DNA of 64,000 nucleotides from a bacterium (GCA_963675755.2 CAXXMD010000002.1:672001-736000); one strand, 5' to 3'. Shown: positions 48,646 through 56,192, counted from the stretch's first letter. Translations and numbers: made by a program. The notes: generated from the sequence alone by a model not told the origin.

Positions 48646-49476
48646 ATGATTTCTTACAATTGCCTTTTTACTTTTAAATATAATATTAATACAATCATCC
48701 TTTTATATACAATTTCATTATTTGCCTGGGGAATTGCTTTACAAGCTCAAGAGCCTGATATGGTATTGGTTAAAGGCGGATGGTTTATAATGGGAAGCGA
48801 TAGTGGAAGTTATGATGAACAACCTGCTCACAAAGTATCTGTAAGTGATTTCTTTATAGATAAATATGAGGTTACTAATAGACAATATTGTGAATTTTTA
48901 AACACCGTAGGAAATCAAATTGAAAATGGTAAAACCTGGTTGGATATGGGTTTTTCAGGCTGCAGAATTGAATTCGTTAATGATATTTATAGGCCTAAAA
49001 AAGGATTTGATGACAATCCTGTTATTGAAGTAACATGGTTTGGAGCAAATGCCTATGCAAAATGGATGGGCAAGAGATTGCCTACTGAAGCCGAGTGGGA
49101 ATATGCAGCTCAAGGTGGAATTAATTCAGAATCATATATCTTAAGTGGAAGCAATGATGCATCAACAGTCGCATGGTTTCAGGATAATTCTAATGGCAAA
49201 ACTCATCCAGTTGGAATAAAGCAACCAAATGAATTGGGAATTCATGATATGAGTGGTAATGTTTGGGAATGGTGTTCAGATTGGTATAGTGAAAATTATT
49301 ATGAACAAAGCCTGCAAAGAGATCCTACCGGTCCTTTAACAGGTACGCAAAAGGTTTTACGCGGTGGTGCCTGGAATGTTATGCCTCTGTTTCTCAATAT
49401 TACAAATCGTAGTTCAGACACACCCAACTTTGCATTAAATATTAGGGGATTCAGATGTGTGAAATCTTTTAATTGA
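48646..49476 (+). CDS. formylglycine-generating-enzyme (SUMF1) fold protein, likely non-catalytic
   Basis: FIMGS, YEVTN, RLPTEAEWEYAA, MSGNVWEWC, RGGAW, GFRC; lacks the catalytic Cys pair after RGG. Confidence 0.85.
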   Translation: MISYNCLFTFKYNINTIILLYTISLFAWGIALQAQEPDMVLVKGGWFIMGSDSGSYDEQPAHKVSVSDFFIDKYEVTNRQYCEFLNTVGNQIENGKTWLDMGFSGCRIEFVNDIYRPKKGFDDNPVIEVTWFGANAYAKWMGKRLPTEAEWEYAAQGGINSESYILSGSNDASTVAWFQDNSNGKTHPVGIKQPNELGIHDMSGNVWEWCSDWYSENYYEQSLQRDPTGPLTGTQKVLRGGAWNVMPLFLNITNRSSDTPNFALNIRGFRCVKSFN

Positions 49477-49497
49477 TAACTAATAGTTGGATTTGAC

Positions 49498-50211
49498 TTA
49501 TAGTGAAATTCCGAAAAATTCGGCATATTTAATTAAATCAGTTAATTTATTAGTTTCAAGCTTTTTCAAGAGATTGCGTCGATGTGTTTTAACTGTCAAG
49601 ATTGAAATAAAGAGTTGATCTGCTATAGTTTTATTTGTTTCTCCTTTTACAATCCATTTTAATATTTGTTTTTCACGTTTGGTTAGTCTGTCAAATTTAT
49701 GGAAATTCTTTTTCATAAAAAGATTTTCATCTAGAAGACGTTTGAGTTGCTTTTCCAACTCGCCAAATGTTTGTAATGGATTGGAAATAGTAAAAATTGT
49801 TTTATCGTCATCACGTATTTTTGAAAGAGATAAAAACCATTGATAATCGTGATCATTATTTCTTCGCATATATTGAAAATAGGCTAAAACCTGATTTTGA
49901 TCATGATTTTGAATAAAATTTTGTAATTTGGGTACTACAATTTCAGCAGAACTTGGATGTACTACGCTATATTGAAAGGCCGATCCTTCAATTGTTATTT
50001 CATCAAGATCTTTTTCAAAAAAATTTTCCATATTGGGACTTAGATATTCAAGTGTTATATCCATAGCGGAATTGAGGTGTAAAAAACCTGGTATAAAATC
50101 AGCAAGATCTGATATACTAAAATTTTTCTCAGATATCATTTGTTCTAATTGATAAACATCTGATTGAACATTTTCTAATCTTTCCTGATCAGTTCTCCCT
50201 TTACTCATCAA
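49498..50211 (-). CDS. LuxR-type HTH regulator with PAS-like N-terminal region
   Basis: LTKREKQIL..GETNKTIADQLFISILTVKTHRRNLLKKL. Confidence 0.88.
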   Translation of the reverse strand: MMSKGRTDQERLENVQSDVYQLEQMISEKNFSISDLADFIPGFLHLNSAMDITLEYLSPNMENFFEKDLDEITIEGSAFQYSVVHPSSAEIVVPKLQNFIQNHDQNQVLAYFQYMRRNNDHDYQWFLSLSKIRDDDKTIFTISNPLQTFGELEKQLKRLLDENLFMKKNFHKFDRLTKREKQILKWIVKGETNKTIADQLFISILTVKTHRRNLLKKLETNKLTDLIKYAEFFGISL

Positions 50212-50327: not shown

Positions 50328-50364
50328 AACCAACCCTGAGTAAAATGGTAACTCAGAGTTGGTT
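50328..50364 (-). terminator. hairpin, probable original terminator of the S8 peptidase gene
   Basis: 14-bp stem AACCAACTCTGAGT/ACTCAGGGTTGGTT (one G-U) on the minus strand just outside the element. Confidence 0.5.
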
Positions 50365-50384
50365 TAATTAATTATTTACGTTTA

Positions 50385-50404
50385 GGAAATATTTCCGGTA
50401 GGTT
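50385..50404 (+). repeat. terminal inverted repeat, low-coordinate end
   Basis: GGAAATATTTCCGGTAGGTT. Confidence 0.75.
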
Positions 50405-50519
50405 GTTTTGAAGATTGGAACATTTAATCATTTTTTCAGCTAACGGAAGGAGCCCGTAGGACGACTGGAGTTAGCTGAAAAACTATGACAACCTAACCTA
50501 TTAATTCCTTTTCAAATTT

Positions 50520-51334
50520 TCAAGTTTTCTTTTGTTTCAAGTCTGAATGATAAATAAATACCAGATCACGATATTGTGTAATTGTCTTCTTACCTAATCC
50601 GGTAATCCTGACCATTCCATTAAATTAAAACCTTTTTCCAATAATAACTTTACGTTCTTGTAACTCTTCAGATACCGACTCGTCGATTCAATTGTATGAT
50701 TTGTGATCCGAGCAATATCCGGTTCAGGATAACCCTGCTCGTACAAATCTATGATTGCGACTTTATGTGTTGGCTTACTGCCCTGATCCAGCATCATTCC
50801 TTTTGTCGGCAATATATCATCATGCGTTTCATGATAAATTGTCATATACCGACCAATAGCGTTTAATGAACGATTTAATAATACACTGAGTTCTGCGCCT
50901 GTCAACCAGCCGCCCTGTTCTGCTGCACTTTTGCACAACCGCGCCATTACCTTAACATCCCGATCAACCTGCTTCTCATAATCAGCCCTGCCATCCTTGT
51001 CTCTATGAGAATAATGACTCTTGATTCGATTATCTATATCTTCATCTGTAACCAATGGCAGTACAACTGTCTGAACCTCATAATCTTCCGCTTTTGTACC
51101 ATAGCTTGGTTTTCGATTTGTCGCTTTGGTTGTTCGCCAGATAATCTGTCCAAAACTTTTCCTTTCCAGCTCCGGATAGAATTCGTTTTGTAAGGCCGTA
51201 ATATCTTCTGCGATCATTCGGATGACTTTATGGCTTCCTAACATTTTATAATTTTCTTCCAGTAAGCGAATTATTGCATTCTGGAAACTGCGTTTAGCTA
51301 TTGATTCATAACGATTTAAAGGTTTAGTCTTCAT
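50520..51334 (-). CDS. DUF1670-like HTH protein B (single-base deletion near 3' end)
   Basis: EQGGWLT, LPTKG..DQG..THK, NHT....RY; restoring one A at about 50615 extends it to EMVRITGLGKKTITQYRDLV...KQKKT-stop at 50520, matching the paralog tail. Confidence 0.75.
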
Positions 51335-52151
51335 AGTGCCCCTCCTTTGGTTGTTTTTTTTTCGAGGGGTATAACACCTTTAATTGATCCAATAACTCTA
51401 CATAGATCGACGGCCATTTGTCACCCTGTTTATGATGCTCAAAAATATCCAGATACTCGCGAGTCAGACGTTCACTTTGGCCTAATAACCGGCTGATCTC
51501 TTTAATGTCTTGCATACCATGATTCAATAAAAGTAATAATCTGCCAAAGCTGCACACATATCGCTTTATTGAAAATGCGCTATGCCGACTTTTACGAATA
51601 ATTGCATCGTATGTGTCACCCTGCAAATACAGTTCAATAATGCGGCTTTTGTGTGACAAACTCCGACCAATGTCATGGTCTGTTCCGCGTGTGTGAACAA
51701 AATTGCCGTCTGTCTGCAATGCCCTTATATCCTGGCGTACAGTGCGACTCGTAACCTGGAGGATTCGGGCCAAATCCTCTTGTGTCAAAGAACCTTCCTG
51801 GTCCCAGGCTTCTTCAGTCAATCGCAATACCTTTAGCTGCCGTAATGCCCTTGGACCACTTTCCTTTAAAATATTTAAATCTTCGATTCCCGCATCCAGT
51901 GTTAATTCAACCTCTATTAACTCCTGCTCGCCCAGAGGCTTGCCATGTTTGGCTTTGGTGGATGCGCAGATATATTTCATTTTACCAACCGTCTGGGGGG
52001 CTTCGCCAAATAAACACTGTTTGGCCAGATCCAATATCCCTTTACTTTCTGCCGGTGATAATTCAAATTCCTTTCGCAAAGAATTGATGAATACTTGCTC
52101 GGGTGTTTTTTCTAATATCCTGTCATACAAACTACTACGAGTATTGTACAT
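51324..52151 (-). CDS. DUF1670-like HTH protein A
   Basis: RLTEEAWDQEGSLTQEDLARIL..RTVRQDI, TRG..HDIG..SHK, RHS....RY; GGAGG SD. Confidence 0.8.
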   Translation of the reverse strand: MYNTRSSLYDRILEKTPEQVFINSLRKEFELSPAESKGILDLAKQCLFGEAPQTVGKMKYICASTKAKHGKPLGEQELIEVELTLDAGIEDLNILKESGPRALRQLKVLRLTEEAWDQEGSLTQEDLARILQVTSRTVRQDIRALQTDGNFVHTRGTDHDIGRSLSHKSRIIELYLQGDTYDAIIRKSRHSAFSIKRYVCSFGRLLLLLNHGMQDIKEISRLLGQSERLTREYLDIFEHHKQGDKWPSIYVELLDQLKVLYPSKKKQPKEGHYED

Positions 52152-52236
52152 TGGTCCTCCGGTAAGTTTTGAAATCTTTATTTGCCTTCCGGTTACTTCC
52201 TTTAAATACTATATGAAATAACCACCTTTTTTCCAA

Positions 52237-52256
52237 AACCTACCGGAAAATTTTCC
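52237..52256 (-). repeat. terminal inverted repeat, high-coordinate end
   Basis: AACCTACCGGAAAATTTTCC on + strand. Confidence 0.75.
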
Positions 52257-55200
52257 TTATTTAACAAGAACCATTTTTTTGGTATCTGTAAAACTCTCTG
52301 TTTGCATTCGGTAAAAATAAACACCTGTCGGAATGGTTTGCCCATTATCATTTAGTCCATTCCAGTGCAATGTATGATATCCTGTATTCAAAGTTGCATC
52401 CATTAGCGTTTTAATTTTTCGGCCAAGGGTATTAAATATCTCAACTTTAACTCTTGATGTACGTGGAATTGCAAAGGTAATATTGGTGGTGGGATTGAAA
52501 GGATTGGGATAATTAGTACCCAAAGCATAATCTGTTGGAATTAATCCCTGATCGAATTCAGATATAGCAGTTGGTAATACTTCAATCACCGCTATTTCAC
52601 TTGTATCTGCTCCAGCAGAATTGGTTACAATTGCACGATAATTGCCAGCATCTCCTATTCTAACATTTGGTAGGTCAAGAATAGGTTCAGTTGCTCCTGC
52701 AATTAATATCCCATCTTTTTGCCACAGATAAATGAGATTCCCACTTCCTTCTGCTTCAACAGATAATGATAAATCTACACCATCCAATACATTTTGTGAT
52801 TGTGGATTTATTGTAACTAATGGAGCAACTGCTTCCTGTTCTACAGTAAAAATTCTTGCAACAATAGGGCTATTGTCATAATTAATCTTGTTTGCAACGG
52901 CTTTAATTACATGTGTTCCAATACCAAGTTCAAAGGGTTCATCATACAACATACTGTTAATTGATGGATCTGATCCATCTGTAGTATAATATATTTTAGC
53001 ATTCAGAGTTTCAGAACTCATTTCAACTGAAACGTGTAAAGTATGTTTATCATTTTCTGGTATAATGATTGGGGGTGCACATTCAAAAAAGAATTGAGCC
53101 TGTGTAATTTCGCTATCCGTAAAGAATGTGCGATATCCCATAGTCTTTAATGTTGCAGGTTGAAACAAGTTTAATGTATTGTTGTATTTTTGAGTGGGTG
53201 GTAATATAGGTAACCAACTGCTTGGATCGCTTCCATCGACAGTATATATGATTTGGGCAAAAGGAGTTGCAGATTCTAATTCAACTTGAACCGCATTATG
53301 AAAAGTACCACCAAAAGGATTAATTGTTGGAGTATCAACCTCACCCAAGGGTTCAACAACAGCAAGTTGACCGGTTTGAATAATATTGCTTGGAGTCATT
53401 CCACTTTTAAATGCTCTAACTTTTAGAAAAATATTTGAACCAACAGATCCCAATAACACAGGTTGAGTATAGGTAATAGAGCCCGCACCCGTTTCAAGAG
53501 GATCATCAGGTAATTGATCAAAACCTACTGTATATCTTATAAGCGCTCCCTCTGTATCACAAGTAATAGTTAAAGGAAAAGGTTTTGTAAATTGTTGCGA
53601 GCTGAAAGGAGAAACTATAGGATCAGCAACAATATTTGTATTTGGATCAAATACAATATAATCTTTAGAAACAGTCTCACTGGAATTAGTACCAGCCAGA
53701 AAGGTTTTTGCTTTAATTGTATGTTGACCTATAGTTAAAGTAAATGGTTCTGAATAAGCATTTGAATAACTCGTTGGTTCAGCACCATTTGTGGTATAAC
53801 GGATAATTCCATTTGCAGTACACGTAGACATGCTAACCTGCACTGAACCTGAATATTGGCCACCGGCAGGTGAAAATACCGGTGCAGCAGCTTGCTGCAC
53901 AATCTCATAATTTGTTGAAACTATTGCACTGGGTGTATAACTTTCCAAATAAACCCGAGCTTTTAATTGTGTCGTTTCAGAAAATTCAAGCGGTTGAATA
54001 AATTGTGCGGAATTTTCATTGGGATCTGTGCCATCTGTTGTATAACGGATAATTGCCCCTAAAACTGTTGATCCAATGTAAACTGTTACACCACCATTAA
54101 AAGTTCCGGATCCAGGGTAAATTGTTGGTGAAGGTAATGTTAATGCATTAACAATGATCTCACCAGTTGTTACCGCATCACTCTTGTAATATCCATCTTT
54201 GTAGCCGCGTGCAGTGATGTAATAATTTCCGGGATCCAATGTAATCGGTCCATCATAATTAGTACCCGGATAAAAGAAACTGGGAATTCTTCCATCGGTG
54301 CGGTATCTAATTGTAGCACCTGGTGTAGATGTTGATATTGTAACCTGATGAGGTTGACTAAAAGTGCCCTCCCCTGGTGTTATTATCGGAGTATCTACTT
54401 TTGGAGTGCTACTAACATACTGGGCTGATACTGATTGGCTTGAATACAATCTTCCATTGTTTTGATTATATTGAAATGCTTTAGCTGTTATTGTAGCCCC
54501 ATAATTGAGATATATTACATCACCCTGGTCAGGAATAAATATATATGAATCTTCATTGGGTTCCGATCCATCAAGAGTATAGCGTATAGACGTATTTGAT
54601 ATACTTTGTCCCGTTCCATAGTTAATTGTGACTTGAATTGGCATTTCATACGTTCCAGAAGGTGGATTGAGAACCAATGGTGATGGCGATAGCGTTTCAT
54701 CATCCCAAATCTGATCAATTGCCATTTTCAGATTTGGTAGAGGACCAATGTTTCCATCTCCCACTTGAGCGGTACCCGTTTCCCGTAAAATATCTTTTAT
54801 TGTTGCAGCACTAGCCGGAGCTCCTGTTTTTTGCTTCAATGTACTTTGTAAAATGGCTACTGCCCCGGCAACAATAGGAGTAGCACTTGAGGTACCACTA
54901 AATCCATTTGTATATAGAAAATTTTCTCCATCATCATCATACAAATTTCCATAACCGGTTGTTAAAACACCATCCCCCCAACCTTGTAAATCAACGGTAT
55001 TACCATAATTTGAAAAATCATGTTTTCTTTTTGCAGAATTTCCCCAGGCAGGTGATTTGCCAGCACCAACCATTATAGCACCGGAATCTTTATTCAAATC
55101 AAAAGGAGCATGACCGGTATTGTATTCATTATCATCAAGGTTCTGCCCTCCATTACCGGCAGCTTCAACAACGATAATACCATTACCTACAGCGGTTTGT

Positions 55201-56192
55201 ATAGCATCATAAATAGTCTTGTTCCATTCAACAGGCATCAACCCGTATTGCGGATCTATATCCGGGTCCCAGTTCGGTCCGGCAATTTGTGCTTCAAGAA
55301 CTATAATATCCCCTTTTTCTAATTCATCAACAGCACGTAAAATAGCTCCTGCGATATCATTTACAGAAGATCCCAAAATATTTGTTACCTGGGCTACAAC
55401 AGATAACTCGGCTTGATTCGCAATACCAGACATACCAAAATCATTATCAATTCCACCATAAATCCCCAAAACTGCGGTACCATGATTTTTCCAGCGTTTA
55501 AGGTCTTTGGCATCAAAAGTATTATCAAAATAAGGTGCTGGACCCACTATAGATACAGGTGAACCAGATCTTGCCAAATCTGCATGAAAACGATTCCAGT
55601 CATATTCCATATCGACAATGTGAACCCCTTTTCCTTTTCCACCGGATCCATGCCAGGCGTATAATGCATCTATCCCATTAGGAGCAGGATCTAGATAGTT
55701 TTGGTAAGAACCACTAGTGTTTGCAGGATCTGTATAATCTGGAACTTGAGGAGGCTCAACAGGAATTGGAATGGGATAAACAGCTTCTACATATAATAAT
55801 TTGCTAAAAAGATCTATTGCTTCTTGCACTGATATATTCTGATCAAGCTTTACAGTAAAATAAGTATTTAAATCTGGTATTGGCTTGTTTAAATTTTCTG
55901 CAGCATTTTCCCGAAATTTAATCATTCGGTTAAAATCAACATCAAAAGTTTTAATCCAATTACTCTTTATTGCAGCTGTTACAGCTGAATTTTGACTATT
56001 TGTACTGTTGTTTGCGTTTTGTTTAAAAAATGTATTTATATCAAGTATTCTATTTTCAACAGGAAGAATTGTATTGTCAACAAATTTAACATGAACAAAA
56101 TTTGGATAGAAATTTTTTATTTTAATATCTGCCCAAATTGAAGATGTTAACATTATAAATAATAACACAATATTAAGATTTAATACTTTCAT
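52257..56192 (-). CDS. secreted S8 (subtilisin-like) peptidase with 7 chitobiase/FN3-associated repeats, an Ig domain and a T9SS/FlgD-Ig C-terminal domain
   Basis: VDMEY (Asp), NHGTAV (His), AAGNG, SGTSSATP (Ser); repeats of P..GG..V......IRYTxDGxxP; YPNPFNP...KKMVLVK. Confidence 0.88.
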   Translation of the reverse strand: MKVLNLNIVLLFIMLTSSIWADIKIKNFYPNFVHVKFVDNTILPVENRILDINTFFKQNANNSTNSQNSAVTAAIKSNWIKTFDVDFNRMIKFRENAAENLNKPIPDLNTYFTVKLDQNISVQEAIDLFSKLLYVEAVYPIPIPVEPPQVPDYTDPANTSGSYQNYLDPAPNGIDALYAWHGSGGKGKGVHIVDMEYDWNRFHADLARSGSPVSIVGPAPYFDNTFDAKDLKRWKNHGTAVLGIYGGIDNDFGMSGIANQAELSVVAQVTNILGSSVNDIAGAILRAVDELEKGDIIVLEAQIAGPNWDPDIDPQYGLMPVEWNKTIYDAIQTAVGNGIIVVEAAGNGGQNLDDNEYNTGHAPFDLNKDSGAIMVGAGKSPAWGNSAKRKHDFSNYGNTVDLQGWGDGVLTTGYGNLYDDDGENFLYTNGFSGTSSATPIVAGAVAILQSTLKQKTGAPASAATIKDILRETGTAQVGDGNIGPLPNLKMAIDQIWDDETLSPSPLVLNPPSGTYEMPIQVTINYGTGQSISNTSIRYTLDGSEPNEDSYIFIPDQGDVIYLNYGATITAKAFQYNQNNGRLYSSQSVSAQYVSSTPKVDTPIITPGEGTFSQPHQVTISTSTPGATIRYRTDGRIPSFFYPGTNYDGPITLDPGNYYITARGYKDGYYKSDAVTTGEIIVNALTLPSPTIYPGSGTFNGGVTVYIGSTVLGAIIRYTTDGTDPNENSAQFIQPLEFSETTQLKARVYLESYTPSAIVSTNYEIVQQAAAPVFSPAGGQYSGSVQVSMSTCTANGIIRYTTNGAEPTSYSNAYSEPFTLTIGQHTIKAKTFLAGTNSSETVSKDYIVFDPNTNIVADPIVSPFSSQQFTKPFPLTITCDTEGALIRYTVGFDQLPDDPLETGAGSITYTQPVLLGSVGSNIFLKVRAFKSGMTPSNIIQTGQLAVVEPLGEVDTPTINPFGGTFHNAVQVELESATPFAQIIYTVDGSDPSSWLPILPPTQKYNNTLNLFQPATLKTMGYRTFFTDSEITQAQFFFECAPPIIIPENDKHTLHVSVEMSSETLNAKIYYTTDGSDPSINSMLYDEPFELGIGTHVIKAVANKINYDNSPIVARIFTVEQEAVAPLVTINPQSQNVLDGVDLSLSVEAEGSGNLIYLWQKDGILIAGATEPILDLPNVRIGDAGNYRAIVTNSAGADTSEIAVIEVLPTAISEFDQGLIPTDYALGTNYPNPFNPTTNITFAIPRTSRVKVEIFNTLGRKIKTLMDATLNTGYHTLHWNGLNDNGQTIPTGVYFYRMQTESFTDTKKMVLVK

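Follow-up and report, generated by a model that had tools for sequence, protein, structure and literature searches.

Organization of the element

The DNA under study is a 64,000-nt window of a bacterial genome (GCA_963675755.2, CAXXMD010000002.1, positions 672001-736000; coordinates are counted from the first nucleotide of the window), and our subject is a small mobile element at positions 50378-52260 on the minus strand. Our reading, to which we give about an even chance, is that this element is a copy of an undescribed family of small insertion sequences (IS), specific for site and orientation, in which a pair of DUF1670 proteins encoded by open reading frames (ORFs) A and B breaks and joins the DNA. 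The window belongs to a genome of 6.48 Mb in three contigs (G000); G001 denotes a complete genome of the same genus. The features of the locus are listed in Table 1.

The element comprises 1883 bp, as delimited by eight aligned copies, five empty sites and relatives. The first-pass annotation of this DNA had described a 1872-bp unit bounded by inverted repeats; such a GG...CC unit does exist (50385-52256), but the true insert is longer on both sides. The arms of the inverted repeat are 21 nt long and 90% complementary, and the repeat is not a chance feature, since identical ends delimit all seven copies found in G001. Each arm carries one perfect 12-bp palindrome, which would suit dimeric helix-turn-helix (HTH) proteins, and the head of the element holds two more ACCGGA(A/G)G motifs. 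The repeats are sub-terminal and asymmetric: in types 2 and 3 (type 2 being that of the window element) they are separated from the junction by 3-4 nt on the gene side and by 7 nt on the far side, and in type 1 by 11 versus 7 nt.

The two co-oriented ORFs overlap by 11 nt and encode paralogous proteins (32% identical over 113 aa by BLASTP, E 6e-11), as had been noted at first pass. Their assignment to Pfam DUF1670 (PF07900) was likewise upheld, with 162.4 bits for A and 149.1 bits for B (cut-off 25), and a six-frame search of the genome agrees. There is no other conserved ORF: antisense ORFs of 100-250 codons are not kept among the elements compared, and a hidden third gene was rejected on this ground.

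ORF B of the window has lost 1 nt, which shifts the frame after residue 240, so that the protein has 246 aa against 271 in G001; over the 240 residues the two are 97% identical. In most relatives B is 268-277 aa long, and the window protein is without the last HTH. The truncated B and the single copy suggest that this copy is dead or crippled; the loss of the last HTH fits its single-copy state. We therefore regard the window element as solitary and probably disabled. The first-pass annotation had overlooked this frameshift, together with the last-codon target and the element-borne stop codon described below.

Table 1. Features of the element, its junctions and its target gene in the window.
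Feature	Position	Strand	Remarks
Hairpin beyond the element	50330..50362	-	CCAACCCTGAGT...ACTCAGAGTTGG; not flagged by a simple terminator scan
Original Lys codon and stop, displaced from the target gene (distal hexamer)	50372..50377	-	AAATAA on the minus strand; from empty versus occupied sites
2-nt repeat, distal copy	50376..50377	.	TT (AA on the gene strand); identical on both sides in 26/26 insertions
Distal tip ACGTTTA (TAAACGT on the gene strand)	50378..50384	.	7 nt beyond the repeat; in all type-2 copies, in no empty site
Distal inverted-repeat arm	50384..50404	.	contains the 12-bp palindrome GGAAATATTTCC
Optional hairpin module	50432..50482	-	perfect stem of 13 bp, conserved loop of 25 nt
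Final 31 codons of ORF B, now out of frame (last HTH)	50520..50613	-	frame read from the sequence
Frameshift site	50615..50616	.	T run one T shorter than in 7/7 G001 copies
ORF B, DUF1670, truncated, 246 aa	50594..51334	-	intact relatives 268-277 aa
ORF A, DUF1670, intact, 275 aa	51324..52151	-	ORF scan, Pfam
Promoter-like site TTGGAA-17-TATAGT	52208..52236	-	consensus match alone; abuts the inner end of the proximal repeat; conserved among type-2 copies
Proximal inverted-repeat arm	52237..52257	.	contains the palindrome GGAAAATTTTCC
Proximal tip TTAT (ATAA on the gene strand)	52257..52260	-	element-borne third Lys-codon base and TAA stop now serving the target gene
2-nt repeat, proximal copy	52261..52262	.	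TT (AA on the gene strand)
Target gene	52257..56192	-	1311-aa S8 peptidase with immunoglobulin-like repeats and a type IX (type A) C-terminal sorting domain, ends ...KKMVLVK*

Junctions and insertion rule

The TTA triplets directly outside the repeats had at first been taken for a target duplication. However, the ACGT to the left of the left TTA is common to all eight copies (the window and seven in G001), and ACGT plus the extra TTA is missing from all five empty sites. Since they are shared by the copies and absent from the empty sites, ACGT and both TTA triplets are element DNA; the right TTA is the new stop of the target gene, and the repeat is AA or AG. The empty site proposed at first pass (...ATTTACGT-TTA-TTTAACAAG...) is thus wrong, and on the plus strand it would read ...AATTATTT/AACAAG... 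An occupied site reads, on the gene strand, ...NNN-AA / ATAA-GGAAAATTTTCCGGTAGG ... CCTACCGGAAATATTTCC-TAAACGT / AA-RTRR...

Positions 1-2 (N1N2) of the junction hexamers are equal on both sides in all 26 insertions, which represent three element types. They are AA in 25 of them and AG in L059, the target of which ends ...TFVR-stop; a type-1 relative at an Arg codon (L037) also shows AG/AG. Positions N3-N6 are unequal in 18 of the 26 insertions (13 of 20 in types 2 and 3, 5 of 6 in type 1), and these differences are not later mutations because they persist among otherwise identical copies. In other words, the two junctions have just 2 nt in common, namely bases one and two of the target's last codon.

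Among the 20 type-2/3 insertions, 19 carry AAATAA as the gene-side hexamer, the exception being L059 with AGATAA. On the far side the hexamers are AAATAA (7, window included), AAATAG (7), AAGTAG (2), AAGTAA (2), AAGTGA (2) and AGATAA (1). All 20 type-2/3 copies have the proximal tip ATAA, and the distal hexamer deviates there in 13; at L026 the far hexamer, AAGTAG, is the very hexamer of the corresponding empty site. The constant proximal AAATAA, as opposed to distal hexamers that change with the copy just as targets do, identifies the stop as element-borne: the proximal ATAA completes the Lys codon and supplies a new TAA, and the old codon and stop are moved to the far side. A duplication of 5-6 nt (TATTT/TTATTT, or AAATA/AAATAA on the gene strand) was rejected, since distal AAGTGA, AAGTAG and AAATAG stand against the constant proximal AAATAA.

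The orientation is fixed as well. The type-2/3 genes are co-directional with the target gene and the type-1 genes are opposed to it, and in both groups a tip ATA(A/G) faces the gene and a tip (C)TAAAC(G/T)T faces away. In full, the distal tip reads TAATAGT for type 3 and CTAAACTTT for type 1.

Target genes

The target gene of the window matches TIGR04183 with 45.5 bits (cut-off 23), and the last 110 residues of all eight type-2 target genes pass the same model (35.8-46.5 bits). Altogether, 24 of the 26 insertions of the three element types lie at the ends of type IX genes in a single orientation. The type-2/3 insertions lie without exception (20/20) at the ...K/R-stop of a sorting-domain gene, 19 after ...x-K-stop and one after ...R-stop, and the codons before the insertion fit K-M-x-L-x. 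Four of the six type-1 insertions are at sorting-domain gene ends; a fifth follows a type-2 copy in tandem, and the sixth is off-target. At this last one (L033, G001) the flank on the upstream side ends ...TTTATCATATATAA and that on the far side is AAAAAC; there is no sorting-domain end, and AA is still shared.

The Lys-stop hexamer alone cannot explain the choice of target, because G000 contains 33,953 such hexamers on both strands as against about 150-290 sorting-domain genes (at least 150 sorting-domain matches, 291 first-look candidates). At L023 and L044 a type-2 element stands between the gene and a type-1 or type-1-like element, and because of this interposed element the recognised sequence is placed upstream, in coding DNA.

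The tandem order of type IX gene, type-2 element and type-1 or type-1-like element is seen at L023 and L025 in G001 and at L044 in G003, and the displaced Lys-stop hexamer is shared there. Tandems can build up in this manner, every insertion regenerating a landing site. A further DUF1670 type (L043 in G046, L046 in G057) has perfect inverted repeats of 14-15 nt around a GCCAWWTGGC palindrome and lies inside a hairpin-forming flank (e.g. TTGAACTCC...GGAGTTCAA) with no type IX gene end; target choice therefore varies between lineages.

Copies, empty sites and distribution

G001 contains 26 DUF1670 matches, i.e. 13 pairs. Seven full-length relatives of the window element are 90-93% identical to it, six of them being 99.7-100% identical to each other, and a second type, type 1, is present in six copies identical over 1850 nt. 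The third type has seven copies in another complete genome, with 0-5 nt differences out of 1799 and an ORF A that is 65% identical. For five of the seven G001 relatives an empty site was found in G000, with the flanks adjacent and 83-91% identical; of the other two, one has no orthologue of its locus and the other directly adjoins a type-1 element. The identical copies at different loci, together with the empty sites in a related genome, show that the family transposes.

The first-pass proposal of a mobile element that is bounded by inverted repeats and has a DUF1670 pair as its only genes is thus borne out, and the copies, the empty sites and the relatives also support a new type of insertion sequence. 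About 30 related elements of 1.2-1.9 kb were compared, none with a DDE or other known transposase gene; an additional DDE transposase, which would have made the window element a deletion derivative, is absent from the homologues compared. DUF1670 pairs elsewhere are bounded by inverted repeats as well (type 1, type 3 and the L043/L046 elements). The expectation of copies at further loci held for G001 and for the third genome, but not for the window genome with its single copy, and the TWA duplications expected beside them did not appear.

That the locus is a non-mobile host regulatory operon of two genes between chance repeats is hardly conceivable. The single copy in G000 and the likeness of the proteins to transcription factors would fit such an operon, but related genomes already contradict it with their copies, empty sites and solo ends and with boundaries shared to the base.

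The ends of the elements bear on a second alternative, according to which a conventional transposase encoded elsewhere (DDE, e.g. IS630-like or IS5-like) moves the unit, and the DUF1670 genes are passengers of a non-autonomous element. The element is without a catalytic domain, and a 2-nt duplication is known for IS630/Tc1. However, the 20-nt end motif is restricted in G001 to the 14 ends of the seven copies and to three decayed remnants, and no second element with the same ends that could act in trans was found in that genome. The repeats vary with the DUF1670 types, as their proteins do: in G001, where types 1 and 2 occur together, the repeats of the two are unrelated (CATATGACCA(T/G)AGG and GGAAAWWTTTCCGGTAGG, respectively) and the outermost tips are similar. 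Moreover, strong purifying selection acts on both ORFs, which are intact in every recently amplified copy, and the asymmetric ends do not resemble DDE ends. We consider this alternative very improbable.

The three remnants are solo ends (L049, L050, L051), two of them proximal ends of about 40 nt directly after type IX stops and one a distal end of 27 nt beside a type IX gene without its 3' end; they are decay products of old insertions. A 1227-bp derivative (L071) has both ends and the usual target, and an internal deletion fuses or removes most of one ORF.

In the contigs of run X1 the element has a depth of 58 against 10-14 for its flanks, and the contigs break at the element ends into several flanks. 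Run X4, which comes from a separate study and is labelled marine metagenome, contains contigs of 556 and 1119 nt that are 90-99% like the element; close relatives therefore exist outside the source of G001. In a survey of the phylum a DUF1670 match was present in 25 of 113 genomes, with a patchy distribution and often on short contigs, and several of the matches are fragments with stop codons. A match to the Pfam family was also obtained with Methanosarcina acetivorans, a member of the control set. A tblastn search of the plasmid collection gave no match. Public records label the homologues as 'DUF1670 domain-containing protein' or 'hypothetical protein'.

The DUF1670 proteins

The dN/dS ratio (non-synonymous to synonymous substitution rates) was calculated for the window and two G001 lineages and is 0.058-0.076 for A and 0.039-0.062 for B, and both ORFs are intact in every recently amplified copy. 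Orthology can be followed across the element types, with 33-36% identity for the first gene and about 29-32% for the second. Judging from these sequences, the A/B duplication is ancient and both members have been retained; the family has no genes other than those for these two DUF1670 proteins, A followed by B.

A library search with a threshold of E <= 0.001 returned 1090 relatives. Among the best 150, twelve are fusions of 506-952 aa with two or three DUF1670 modules, and no further Pfam domain was found in the fusions save for one EamA read-through in P0223. Four of them (P0141, P0142, P0144 and P0154; 930-952 aa) have three modules and a degenerate fourth N-terminus, and two-module fusions exist in either order. 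A gap of 190 aa in the 930-950-aa fusions was considered as a catalytic insert and rejected, as it resembles a degenerate B-type N-terminus.

Apart from DUF1670, the Pfam matches are to HTH families, among them the transposase-type HTH_28, HTH_23 and HTH_29 in A and a weak, resolvase-type HTH_7 in B (E 0.036); NCBIfam gave nothing beyond Pfam for either protein. The AlphaFold model of A, built from 76 sequences, has a pLDDT (predicted local distance difference test) of 86.3 and a pTM (predicted template modelling score) of 0.56. It consists of helices at 8-47, a beta-hairpin at 57-84, a winged helix at about 100-165 and HTH units at about 167-210 and about 216-260. The most conserved residues, R155-G156, H167-K168, H190 and Y198, are placed by the model at wings, linkers and recognition helices; D91, R110, R155, H167, H190, Y198 and Y233 are near-invariant in A. 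In the structural search with the N-terminal part the best match is IHF alpha (Z 4.7, root-mean-square deviation (rmsd) 1.9, 36 residues), with HU and Hbb lower; these are weak matches and may serve as a lead. A sequence-profile search of the PDB returned winged-helix regulators only (best E 0.0035), PHROGs weak regulator matches only, and the Protein Atlas HTH_23-type clusters only (0.78-0.82, under the level that counts). The prediction of an A-B complex gave a score of 0.01 (mark 0.32), which speaks neither for nor against such a complex.

Possible mechanism and its alternatives

That the DUF1670 pair is itself the breaking and joining enzyme is suggested by sequence and context, and we see the case as about evenly balanced. 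In its favour, the pair seems to be needed by the element: it is under purifying selection, the repeats differ with the proteins, and there is no other bearer of the ends. A more specific proposal, put forward tentatively and with somewhat less than even expectation, is that A and B form a strand-transfer enzyme of an unrecognised class, with HTH modules, an IHF-like module, a 2-nt staggered exchange and a coding target of about 20 bp. On the main reading A and B, as chains of DNA-binding modules, would bind the palindromes and the sequence of about 20 bp in the coding DNA upstream of the crossover. They would then pair the ends of the element, and the joined ends would read ...TAAACGT-AA-ATAAGG..., mimicking the target ...NTN-AA-RTRR. 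Strands might be exchanged across the 2-nt stagger, as in serine integrases and IS110, or a 2-nt staggered cut might be filled in. The pair itself would break and join the DNA, by a chemistry not yet recognised. A conservative exchange over 2 nt is favoured over an attack by symmetric ends of the DDE kind, because the joined ends would mimic the target and the ends are asymmetric; a 2-nt staggered cut with repair is compatible with the data as well.

A number of observations weigh against this proposal. The proteins, to begin with, offer no recognised catalytic part. Neither A nor B matches a DDE, HUH, serine-recombinase or tyrosine-recombinase family in Pfam or NCBIfam at E <= 0.1, which agrees with what the first-pass annotation had said of their signatures, and every modelled part of A from the winged helix onwards is a winged or plain HTH. 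Foldseek of A against the PDB gave nothing at E <= 0.001, and the wide structural search of A returned DNA-binding winged-helix/HTH regulators only (best Z 6.2, rmsd 2.2, 58 residues). There is no nuclease or recombinase among the matches listed in the wide structural searches, by which a known fold is not excluded. The N-terminal 100 residues of A, modelled alone from 16 sequences, have a pLDDT of 69 and no match at Z >= 5. The conserved residues of A need not be catalytic, since the model places them at DNA contacts.

On the same side stand some properties of the window copy, which is solitary and frameshifted: the DNA search and the six-frame profile search found one copy in G000, and no empty site was found for the window insertion itself, neither flank having an orthologue in G001. 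The pattern of 22 letters expected for joined ends occurs once in the metagenome contigs, and this stretch is a distal end followed by an unrelated flank, for which reason it was rejected as a circle or tandem junction. Neither an excised circle nor any other product of excision was seen; in the contigs of runs X1-X3 there was no such joint and in X4 one unrelated joint, contigs being unable to reveal rare forms. Finally, the figure of 2 nt (versus 0) for the overlap depends on the two AG/AG cases, L059 and L037, and from these sequences a 2-nt crossover and a 2-nt duplication cannot be told apart.

Several of these observations would be expected if the element supplied the targeting, A and B assembling a nucleoprotein complex in which ends and target are recognised and the DNA is bent, and a resident chromosomal enzyme of the host (a serine, tyrosine or DEDD recombinase or a topoisomerase) did the cutting and joining, in the manner of the elements that exploit XerCD. 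All recognisable modules of A are DNA-binding folds, the best match of its N-terminal part is to the helices of IHF/HU, albeit weakly, no known catalytic fold or motif was found, and the fusions contribute more DUF1670 modules only. On the other hand, the family is scattered over many lineages and reaches Methanosarcina acetivorans, so that the helper must be near-universal; two element types with different repeats are active in one genome; and no candidate helper was identified, although no search aimed at one was made. We regard borrowed host chemistry as possible, with rather more doubt than belief.

Other features of the locus

The hairpin that follows the element probably served as the terminator of the target gene before the insertion separated the two. 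To the left lie a gene of the formylglycine-generating enzyme (FGE)-sulfatase family at 48646-49476 on the plus strand and a LuxR/GerE-type regulator at 49498-50211 on the minus strand; no orthologue of the stretch 48646-50211 was found in G001.

The hairpin module within the element is present in the window, in the G001 copies and in L044 and L045, where its outer stem covaries, and it is absent from L047, L059, L064 and L071, i.e. from four of the nine distinct DUF1670 elements compared. Its loop is conserved over 22-25 nt (plus strand, GGAGCCCGTAGG(A/G)CGACTGGAG) and the stems vary. The same loop with a different stem is found just downstream of an IS3-type element with HTH_Tnp_1 and rve ORFs (G001, L082, 1507-1553) and once more in G001 at position 2152972.

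Implications

IS families are defined by their transposase, and here a clearly mobile family that is widespread in uncultured lineages carries none that is recognisable. If the DUF1670 pair does act as proposed, a new kind of DNA-breaking and DNA-joining protein resides within DUF1670, and a class is added beside DDE, DEDD, HUH, serine and tyrosine enzymes; alternatively, the element borrows a host enzyme and supplies the addressing, and either outcome would be new for insertion sequences. The target is the DNA coding for the last conserved beta-strand of type IX sorting domains, which offers hundreds of harmless landing pads per genome, and, with the Lys-codon base and the stop both brought along by the element, the host protein stays the same. 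Compact (<1.9 kb), orientation-specific and base-precise integration might be of use as a tool. As to annotation, DUF1670 pairs are to be regarded as mobile-element genes, and contigs of about 1.8-2 kb that bear them as collapsed repeats.

A full-text literature search for DUF1670 and PF07900 found no publication (supplements, ISfinder and TnCentral lie outside its scope, and an unclassified ISfinder entry is possible). Nothing relevant was found in the literature on insertion sequences at type IX genes or stop codons, on ISA1214/ISC1217/ISM1, on ISNCY/IS892/ISPlu15 or on new IS families.

Comparison with known systems

The first-pass annotation had compared the element to the ISL2 group of IS5 and to PIF/Harbinger. 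The likeness is confined to the GG...CC termini of the repeats and the small size; there is neither a DDE transposase nor a TWA or other 3-nt duplication, and the asymmetric ends and the site- and orientation-specific insertion also speak against it. The element differs from IS200/IS605 (HUH), which have a Y1 transposase and sub-terminal hairpins but no inverted repeats, in that Y1_Tnp is not matched and the ends form a 20-nt inverted repeat. It differs from integrative mobile elements exploiting Xer (IMEX; XerCD, dif) in that the kind of gene end at which it inserts recurs hundreds of times in the genome, unlike dif, although no dif model was searched. As regards tyrosine recombinases, which are marked by the phage-integrase fold and the residues R-K-H-R-H/W-Y, there is no Pfam match and none among the 50 structural matches listed, the latter being weak as an exclusion.

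IS630/Tc1-mariner elements have a 2-nt TA duplication, a DDE/D transposase and terminal inverted repeats. The possible 2-nt duplication, the inverted repeats and the N-terminal HTH_28, HTH_23 and HTH_29 matches of ORF A, of transposase type, are reminiscent of them, but here the 2 nt are AA or AG within a long specific target rather than TA, there is no DDE/D enzyme, and the ends are asymmetric with a strict orientation.

Serine integrases act through a 2-nt crossover on an attP-like site with inverted binding sites. The DUF1670 element resembles them in the possible 2-nt crossover, in joined ends that would be attP-like, with inverted sites around a short target-like core, and in the weak match of ORF B to HTH_7, the HTH of resolvases. 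It differs in that there is no resolvase catalytic domain, the crossover is off-centre (7 versus 3-4 nt), and an element of 1.9 kb has hundreds of alternative targets per genome.

IS110/IS1111 elements use a DEDD transposase with a bridge RNA, share about 2 nt between donor and target and, in IS1111, have sub-terminal repeats. Site- and orientation-specific insertion into a repeated genomic sequence, about 2 shared nt and asymmetric ends are common to both systems. However, a DEDD/RuvC-like transposase with a C-terminal Ser domain is absent from the window element according to Pfam, NCBIfam and the structural matches listed, and two HTH-only proteins stand in place of one enzyme. As to a guide RNA, neither the element nor its hairpin module matches an Rfam family at E <= 1, the non-coding head measures about 105 nt and not every member of the family has the tail hairpin; a search for complementarity was not part of this comparison.

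Directed by TnsD to attTn7, Tn7 enters the DNA downstream of glmS, with a 5-bp duplication and the TnsABC enzymes. The window element differs from it in going into the last codon itself and rewriting both that codon and the stop; its targets number in the hundreds, and it encodes no known enzyme. What the two have in common is the 'safe harbour', i.e. both read a conserved coding 3' end, insert in one orientation and leave the gene product intact.

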